Source: Escherichia coli
GTDB lineage: Bacteria; Pseudomonadota; Gammaproteobacteria; Enterobacterales; Enterobacteriaceae
Length of the DNA stretch: 64,000 bases
Assembly: GCF_024223415.1 (NCBI RefSeq)
Contig: NZ_CP100500.1
Strand: one strand, 5' to 3'
The number at the start of each line of letters is the position of its first letter. The stretch's first letter is position 1. The notes under the pieces were generated by a model, which worked only from the letters and a program-made list of their open reading frames with translations, made no database searches and was not told the DNA's origin. Positions 63,104 to 64,000 of the stretch are shown one piece after another. Both the position numbers and the translations under genes were made by a program.

Positions 63104-63476
63104 ATGCGTCTGGAATTTGTTTTGCCTTACCCGCCGCCGGTGAACACTTACTGGCACCGTCGTGGTGGTAAGTATTTTGTATCAAAAGCGGGGGGAACGT
63201 TATCGTCGTGATGTCAGGCTTATTGTTCGCCAGCAGCAACTGAGATTAAGGCTGACCGGAAGACTGGGTATAAAAATCATCGCAGACCCGCCAGACAACC
63301 GCCGCCGTGACCTGGACAACATACTGAAAGTACCGCTGGATGCGCTGACCCATGCGGGGCTGCTTATTGATGACGAACAGTTTGATGAAATTTATATCGT
63401 GCGTGGCGTGTCAGTACCTGACGGGCGTCTGGGAGTGAAGATTTACGAAATTACAGGTGGTAACAATGGCGCGTGA
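63104..63476 (+). pseudogene. rusA: RusA-family Holliday junction resolvase, split by a frameshift at a G6 run
   Basis: N-terminal ORF MRLEFVLPYPPPVNTYWHRRGG... stops shortly after the G run at ~63190-63195; the downstream frame (track 63162..63476) carries ...DPPDNRRRDLDNILKVPLDALTHAGLLIDDEQ..., typical of RusA; removing one G restores a ~120-aa ORF. Confidence 0.7.
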
Positions 63477-63891
63477 TATTCAGCAGGTTATGGAGCGATG
63501 GGGGGCATGGGTGGCGAATAACCACGAAGACGTGGAATGGTCATCCATTGCCGCCGGATTCAAGGGGCTGATACCGTCAAAAGTAAAATCGCGACCGCAG
63601 TGTTCCGATGATGACGCGATGATTATCTGTGGTTGTATGGCTCAACTGAACCGGAACAACAGTGATTTGCATGAATTGCTGGTTGATTACTACGTGTGTG
63701 GGATGACGCTGATGAAGTTAGCAAGGAAACATGGATGTTCTGATACGCATATTGGAAAGCGTTTGCAAAAAGCTGAAGGAGTGGTTGATGGCATGTTGAT
63801 GATGCTGGGAGTAAGACTTGAGATGGATCGGTATGTGAGCGTAAATTATTCGATGTGCCGTAAAACTCCGTCCTTCAGGGCAGGGATATAA
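63457..63891 (+). CDS. Q: Late-gene antiterminator Q
   Basis: 144-aa ORF, ...[35 protein letters not shown]...[16 protein letters not shown]...; resembles Q proteins of Stx-converting lambdoid phages by recollection. Confidence 0.75.
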
Positions 63892-63913
63892 GGCGTACAG
63901 GATAAATAAAAGA

Positions 63914-63928
63914 ACGGGCGCAAAGCGC
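63914..63928 (+). other. GC hairpin downstream of Q (candidate pR'/tR' region)
   Basis: GGGCGC-aaa-GCGCCC palindrome ~25 bp after the Q stop. Confidence 0.4.
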
Positions 63929-64000
63929 CCAAGTATAAACAACAAAAAACGGTAATAAATAACAGAAAGTCCGTTGGAAAAGTTAAGTACTGTCCAACGT

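Follow-up and report, generated by a model that had tools for sequence, protein, structure and literature searches.

A Q-type antiterminator at the end of an Escherichia coli prophage segment and the convergent porin gene that probably follows it

The window, a 64,000-nt stretch of Escherichia coli DNA, ends inside a lambdoid prophage, and we read this end, with a probability of roughly 0.85, as the late-control region of the prophage, in which the antiterminator gene Q, an antisense porin gene, the late promoter pR', tRNA genes and lysis genes would follow one another in that order, with no toxin gene among them. The window stops before the late region, as the earlier note had observed, and holds none of the downstream genes; content past position 64000 is taken from relatives. 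These comprise 18 related loci, namely the GF60 prophage, three complete genomes at 89% identity and 14 listed places of the exact Q protein. The features assigned near the right-hand edge of the window are as follows.

63104 to 63476, plus strand: pseudogene of rusA (Holliday-junction resolvase), with one additional G in a G-run, where the translation breaks.
63466 to 63891, plus strand: Q, a late-gene antiterminator of 141 aa, of the Q933W/QuuD/Q21 family (PF06530).
63846 to 63896 (core 63857-63896), plus strand: 51-nt stretch like an IS200/IS605 end, 92-97% identical to the tnpA-side end.
63905 to 63931, minus strand: putative intrinsic terminator of the convergent porin gene, with a 7-bp stem and 3-nt loop (63931-63915), then the T-run TTCTTTTATT.
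63932 to 64000, minus strand: predicted distal part of the porin mRNA 3' UTR, assigned from its fold and from its continuation in GF60 and in a further relative, L016.

The window is E. coli chromosome, in which yehY-bglX-dld-pbpG and neighbouring genes were recognised, and the lambdoid prophage starts at ~50-52 kb. From 49786 on, the window is colinear with the GF60 prophage, whose start is formed by integrase and excisionase genes, and the order integrase, repressor, helicase, primase, rusA and Q is common to both. GF60 was the best match among 5,426 complete E. coli genomes, its identity being 99.5% across the final 2 kb and 97.5% when the final 5.7 kb are taken. The final 6 kb encodes, on the plus strand, a NUMOD4/HNH protein, a DEAD-box helicase, a toprim primase, a 286-aa protein (labelled helix-turn-helix by PGAP in GF60), RusA and Q; the position of Q is thereby that of the last gene of the early-right (nin/rusA) operon, after the helicase, primase, helix-turn-helix and rusA genes. 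The homing-endonuclease-like NUMOD4/HNH_3 gene (58868-59500) abuts the prophage helicase gene on its upstream side. The immunity region (54965-58348) differs from that of GF60 (L001) while both of its flanks match at 97-99%, a difference that is ordinary lambdoid mosaicism. The tRNA scan found no tRNA genes in the window.

The last complete gene had been called a Q-type antiterminator, and this identification holds. Its product gives a full-length match to the Pfam family Phage_antitermQ (PF06530; model positions 2-118 of 118; E=6.5e-52) and matches PHROG 79, "anti-termination protein Q-like" (E=1.4e-51), while residues 9-86 match the solved Q21 chains 6P18/6JNX (phmmer against the PDB, E=2.6e-8); no NCBIfam model matches this Q. 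The longest open reading frame spans 63457-63891 from a GTG start, and translation probably begins with the ATG at 63466, located 6 nt downstream of the Shine-Dalgarno sequence AGGTGG (63454-63459) and used by RefSeq as the start in the identical GF60 gene, whose product is annotated as "antiterminator Q family protein"; the 3' end of rusA overlaps the Q start by 11 nt. The proposed resemblance to the Qs of Stx-converting phages is borne out in so far as the protein belongs to the short (~144-aa) class, but it is not specific, as the Qs of DLP12 and of non-toxigenic phages are equally close. Identity amounts to 73-77% over the full length with many Stx1a/Stx2a phage Qs, 81% over 123 aa with the 933W Q, 79% with QuuD of K-12 DLP12 and 80% with the Q of the non-toxigenic phage ev207. 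Q21 of phage 21 (PDB 6P18/6P19 and 6JNX/6JNY) belongs to the same Pfam family and presumably shares the mechanism of loading at a sigma-dependent pause, although identity is low over the 78 aligned residues and the solved chain has 162 aa compared with 141 aa here.

Judged by family membership, the window's last gene is thus a genuine and intact phage Q antiterminator. That it might instead be a non-functional relic, doing nothing in a decaying prophage, seems quite unlikely. The prophage may indeed be decaying, because rusA, immediately upstream of Q, is frameshifted: its G-run reads G6 at 63190-63195, as against G5 in the intact GF60 gene with which it was aligned, the RusA identity of the pseudogene being given by the Pfam RusA family called on intact homologues. 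The extra G is probably real rather than a read error, since the nearly identical L016 has it too. In addition, the related Ch1 prophage has a frameshifted terminase gene and other pseudogenes, and DLP12 illustrates how the same layout persists in cryptic prophages. The Q reading frame itself, however, is intact over the full Pfam model, the identical protein occurs on contigs in 550 blocks of the collection (protein-identity look-up), the cognate pR' block is kept with 0-1 mismatches, and in GF60 and L016 the genes for lysis and terminase seem intact.

GF60 is 100% identical to the window over 63440-64000, and its locus continues with a porin gene on the minus strand (14075-15178), two tRNA genes and then the lysozyme and Rz genes; the three other complete genomes, 89% identical at the Q region, have the same layout. 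Among the remaining relatives, three are nearly identical to the last 7.5-9.9 kb of the window: L014 differs from it at no position in 9681 nt, L016 at one position in 9876 nt and L011 at one in 7535 nt. A 367-aa porin of the OmpF/OmpC type is encoded on the minus strand in 18 of the 18 related loci, and in all 14 places of the exact Q protein among the matches listed, the Porin_1 gene lies 184 nt after Q on that strand. The first gene past the edge is, as certainly as homology can make it, this porin gene. As its stop codon is situated ~75 nt past the edge in all relatives (equivalent to 64075-64077), the last ~95 nt of the window (63905-64000) would represent the distal porin 3' UTR together with the terminator. 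The expectation of cargo downstream of Q is therefore partly upheld, in that an insert is present, but it takes the form of an antisense porin gene between Q and pR' and not of cargo after pR'; the opposite outcome, in which nothing is inserted between Q and the lysis gene S, fails in the relatives, all of which carry an insert between Q and the lysis genes.

The porin matches the Pfam family Porin_1 and scores below the curated cut-offs of the OmpF, OmpC and PhoE models, of which OmpF is nearest; it is ~64% identical to NmpC of DLP12. In 42 sequenced phages a porin of this family is encoded, and the best of these porins is likewise ~64% identical, so this allele is not represented among sequenced isolated phages. 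The GC content on both flanks of the gene is 31-36%, compared with ~50% elsewhere, which is typical of a moron. Porin genes borne by phages are classic genes of lysogenic conversion; lambdoid phages with a porin moron include PA-2, whose porin gene is lc, and known phage porins are expressed from their own promoters in the lysogen. By analogy, a promoter of its own most likely drives this porin gene in the lysogen, independently of Q; its upstream region is AT-rich (31% GC), and the promoter scan gave one weak match to the -35/-10 consensus upstream of the gene. Since the gene is antisense and lies upstream of pR', it would fall outside the Q-dependent transcript, and its place between Q and pR' on the opposite strand argues that it is not controlled by Q in the way that stx is.

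The GC hairpin reported after Q is present, with the form GGGCGC-AAA-GCGCCC at 63916-63930, which the scan extends to seven pairs at 63915-63931; its role is where the interpretation changes, as it appears to be the terminator of the minus-strand porin gene and neither tR' nor the terminator of Q. The terminator-like call falls on the minus strand only, where a stem of 7 bp, 6 of them GC, runs into the T-run, whereas the plus-strand sequence after the stem is the A-rich AAGTATAAACAACAAAAAAC and offers no T-run; it is this restriction of the T-run to the minus strand that assigns the hairpin to the convergent gene. The terminator scan of the region returned 1 site as against 1.0 +/- 1.0 in shuffled sequences, which is chance level taken alone, and the hairpin is credible as a terminator because it is conserved: all 18 related loci share its 15-mer unchanged, among them those of the lineage with only 89% identity across Q and its tail. 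At the equivalent position, DLP12 and ev207 carry a GC hairpin of another sequence, again with a minus-strand T-run, an analogy that rests on direct reading of the sequences because RNAalifold misaligned the DLP12 and ev207 hairpins.

It is highly improbable that the hairpin is instead a plus-strand terminator, either of Q and the early operon or tR' itself, with pR' contained in the 109 nt after Q and cargo directly next. The arrangement in 933W/Sp5, where pR' overlaps the Q 3' end and a hairpin lies within ~50 nt, would favour it, as would the stable fold of the stem in plus-strand RNA. Besides the missing T-run, however, the scan found no promoter-like sites in 63892-64000, the 41-mer that marks pR' is absent from the whole window and follows the porin gene in 18 of 18 relatives, and homology to 933W ends at ~63841, before the position of the 933W pR'.

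The 3' terminus of Q is formed by the stretch at 63846-63896, which encodes the last 15 codons and the stop, and whose likeness to the end of a tnpA/tnpB element of the IS200/IS605 type includes the imperfect hairpin of that end, CCGTCCTTCAGGGCAGGG; a similar hairpin occurs at the other end of the element. Approximately 840 of the 5,426 complete E. coli genomes match this stretch only. Homology to the 933W Q stops at ~63841, just upstream of it, and the window Q and the Qs of the Stx1a/Stx2a phages, 933W, DLP12 (QuuD) and ev207 all diverge past the motif LEMD. The stretch resembles a solo IS end that has remained as a relic where Q and the porin module meet. Its reading as a small gene or sRNA was rejected, the matching sequence being an IS200/IS605 end inserted in a DLP12-like remnant.

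That remnant is found in E. coli CFSAN061772 and UMNK88 (L006 and L024, 1600-4260), at a locus that may be common in E. coli. Besides emrE-ybcL-ybcM, it retains the final ~100 nt of a quuD-like Q; its porin gene has lost all but the first 41 nt, and the IS200/IS605 element follows the upstream region of the porin, where DLP12 has pR'; the counterpart of the window stretch (L006 2501-2551) adjoins tnpA. GF60-type relatives contain a second, inverted IS relic between the tRNA genes and the holin gene (L001 16200-16251, L002 11728-11779, L007 9735-9786 and others), in which the left half of one IS end is fused with the right half of the other, as if the interior of the IS had been deleted between its two similar hairpins.

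The predicted 3' UTR of the porin mRNA extends over ~160 nt (L016 9768-9950, minus strand, the distal part corresponding to window 63892-64000) and contains several hairpins, of which one, CGTTGGA...TCCAACG, folds at 63972-63999. These hairpins are kept in the window lineage, DLP12 and ev207, and in five of their pairs both partners have changed; the region is unusually structured for a plain 3' UTR. A reading in which the 3' UTR acts as a regulatory RNA or as a brake on convergent transcription, and in which the IS200/IS605 relic in the Q C-terminus marks the import of the porin module, is nevertheless very unlikely. In its brake version, the porin transcript, running head-on towards the end of Q, would limit read-through from the early operon and Q towards pR' in lysogens.

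Homology to 933W, which breaks at the Q 3' end, resumes ~1.7 kb later, past the porin gene, at TTTACG-16-TATCAT-GGTAAGAGTGGTT. This 41-mer block is identical at 38 of 41 positions to the 933W/Sp5 pR' and, in all 18 relatives, is located ~1.68 kb beyond the stop codon of Q, with at most one mismatch; the promoter scan also picks up the TTTACG/TATCAT block. The start site of the Sp5 pR' has been mapped experimentally 258 nt upstream of tR' (Sy et al. 2020, PMC7547250). In Sakai, a start 258 nt before the T-run of the GCCAGCC...GGCTGGC hairpin would fall 7 nt after TATCAT, the offset between record versions being inferred, and this distance supports the TTTACG/TATCAT assignment. The short hairpin that follows pR' in the window lineage is weak, and was dropped as a candidate for tR' given its 4-bp stem and the fact that the Sp5 tR' has been mapped to another hairpin farther downstream. 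As candidates for tR', L016 offers two strong plus-strand terminators beyond its tRNA genes. A homologue of the StxS sRNA or of the Sp5-type tR' is absent after pR', where the promoter and the first hairpin are the only elements in common; the corresponding StxS/tR' segment of 933W (L005 4507-4841) has no counterpart in the window lineage.

The same relatives bear on what the late transcript would contain. Two to three tRNA genes follow pR' in 17 of the 18 relatives, TUM1886 having none; they specify Ile2-CAU, Arg-UCU or Lys-UUU and sometimes Thr-UGU. In the tRNA-bearing relatives of the GF60/L016 type, these tRNA genes are the only genes between pR' and the holin gene. Genes for holin, lysozyme and Rz, then terminase genes, come after the tRNAs in GF60 and L016, and a lysis cassette lies downstream of Q in every relative long enough to show one. 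Rfam, applied to the Q-to-holin region of a relative, gave three tRNAs only above threshold, and below it weak matches to a tmRNA-like fragment, isrK and STnc550. The sub-threshold tmRNA match (20 bits, E=1.9e-5) lies at L016 12105-12163, between the tRNA cluster and the holin gene, and has a tRNA-like 3' end (GGTTCGATTCCGG...); it may be a tRNA/tmRNA fragment or the remnant of an old attachment site.

Of the downstream content anticipated in the earlier note, tRNA genes, the holin/lysozyme cassette and a moron, here the porin, are therefore found in relatives, while toxin cargo is not: tblastn with Stx2A and Stx2B detected stx in none of the 18 related loci and found it in the 933W control. 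A Stx-converting or other toxin-converting phage, with the toxin gene situated between pR' or the tRNA genes and the holin gene just past the edge, is accordingly an exceedingly improbable reading of the window. Its appeal stems from the Q, which falls in the short class linked with Stx1/Stx2a phages (PMC7547250), and from the ileZ-like (CAU) and Arg-UCU tRNAs of the relatives, which are as in Stx phages. Apart from the negative search, it is opposed by the gap between the last tRNA gene and the holin gene in L016 and L011, which at ~400 nt is too short for stxAB, and by the exact Q allele itself, which always precedes a porin gene in the 14 places among the matches listed.

Comparison with known systems supplies the closest parallels for the porin-containing layout. 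In the qsr' region of DLP12 of K-12 (rusA-ylcG-quuD, an oppositely oriented nmpC, essD-rrrD-rzpD), genes and strands are arranged as here, the porin gene is convergent with Q at a distance of ~190 nt as in the window lineage, and a pR'-like block between the porin and holin genes is 77% homologous to that of the window lineage. The C-terminal tail of the DLP12 Q, however, is unlike that of the window Q; the window lineage also differs in its tRNA genes after pR' and in the IS200/IS605 end relic at the Q 3' end, and the window prophage in its replication module, which is of the helicase/primase type. The viable phage ev207 has the same architecture, with RusA, YlcG, Q, a minus-strand porin, holin, lysozyme, Rz and Bor. 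The prophage layout rusA-Q-porin(-)-pR'-S-R-Rz has thus long been known from DLP12 and ev207, and RefSeq already lists the Q and the porin, under the names "antiterminator Q family protein" and "porin". In 933W/Sp5 (Q-pR'-tR'-ileZ/argN/argO-stxAB-S), the Q is of the same class and tRNA genes also follow pR'; however, the annotated 933W pR' overlaps the end of Q, whereas a 1.7-kb antisense porin module intervenes in the window lineage, and the Stx phages have stxAB, which the 18 related loci do not.

Both Q21 and lambda Q load onto RNA polymerase paused near pR' and render the polymerase resistant to terminators. By analogy with Q21, the window Q would engage RNA polymerase at a pause just downstream of pR', and the Q-loaded polymerase would then read through terminators into the tRNA, lysis and structural genes. 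In this phage lineage, a porin moron of ~1.7 kb on the opposite strand would separate Q from pR', as a module that brings its own AT-rich upstream region and, in the hairpin at 63915-63931, its own terminator. The order expected past the edge is accordingly the porin gene on the minus strand, pR' (TTTACG-16-TATCAT) with its short leader hairpin, two to three tRNA genes, terminators, the holin, lysozyme and Rz genes, and terminase. The tRNA and lysis genes would lie inside the Q-dependent late transcript, and the porin gene would be a Q-independent lysogenic-conversion gene.

Because these phages are mosaic, content beyond ~2 kb past the edge is not certain, and it is at about this distance past Q that the three nearest relatives differ: L014 enters a second module, whereas L016 and L011 proceed straight to the tRNA genes and holin gene. 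L014 (9342-16861) contains Q, the porin gene, a tRNA gene, an 85-aa reading frame, a DUF968 gene, a second Q, a 335-aa porin gene, tRNA genes and the holin gene; its second Q is 89% identical in DNA to the first, and its tandem Q-porin modules may have arisen by recombination between two prophages at the shared pR'/tRNA region. It is somewhat unlikely that the downstream region of the source strain departs materially from the L016/GF60 type through such mosaic recombination, for example by possessing a second nin-Q-porin module of the L014 type. The gene order of L014 documents that such a structure occurs, and no other locus agrees with the final 9.7 kb of the window at every position; yet the left end of L014 (the first 195 nt) fails to match the window, whereas L016 matches throughout. 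The same porin gene comes first after Q in both L014 and L016, which agree with each other at 99% for the first ~1990 nt past Q.

The toxin-converting reading of the prophage is ruled out, and the value of the present reading, in which Q would be followed by an antisense porin gene and then by pR', lies mainly in correct annotation, in which the "GC hairpin after Q" would be credited to the convergent porin gene. For the host, a phage-borne porin may alter outer-membrane permeability as well as sensitivity to phages or colicins.
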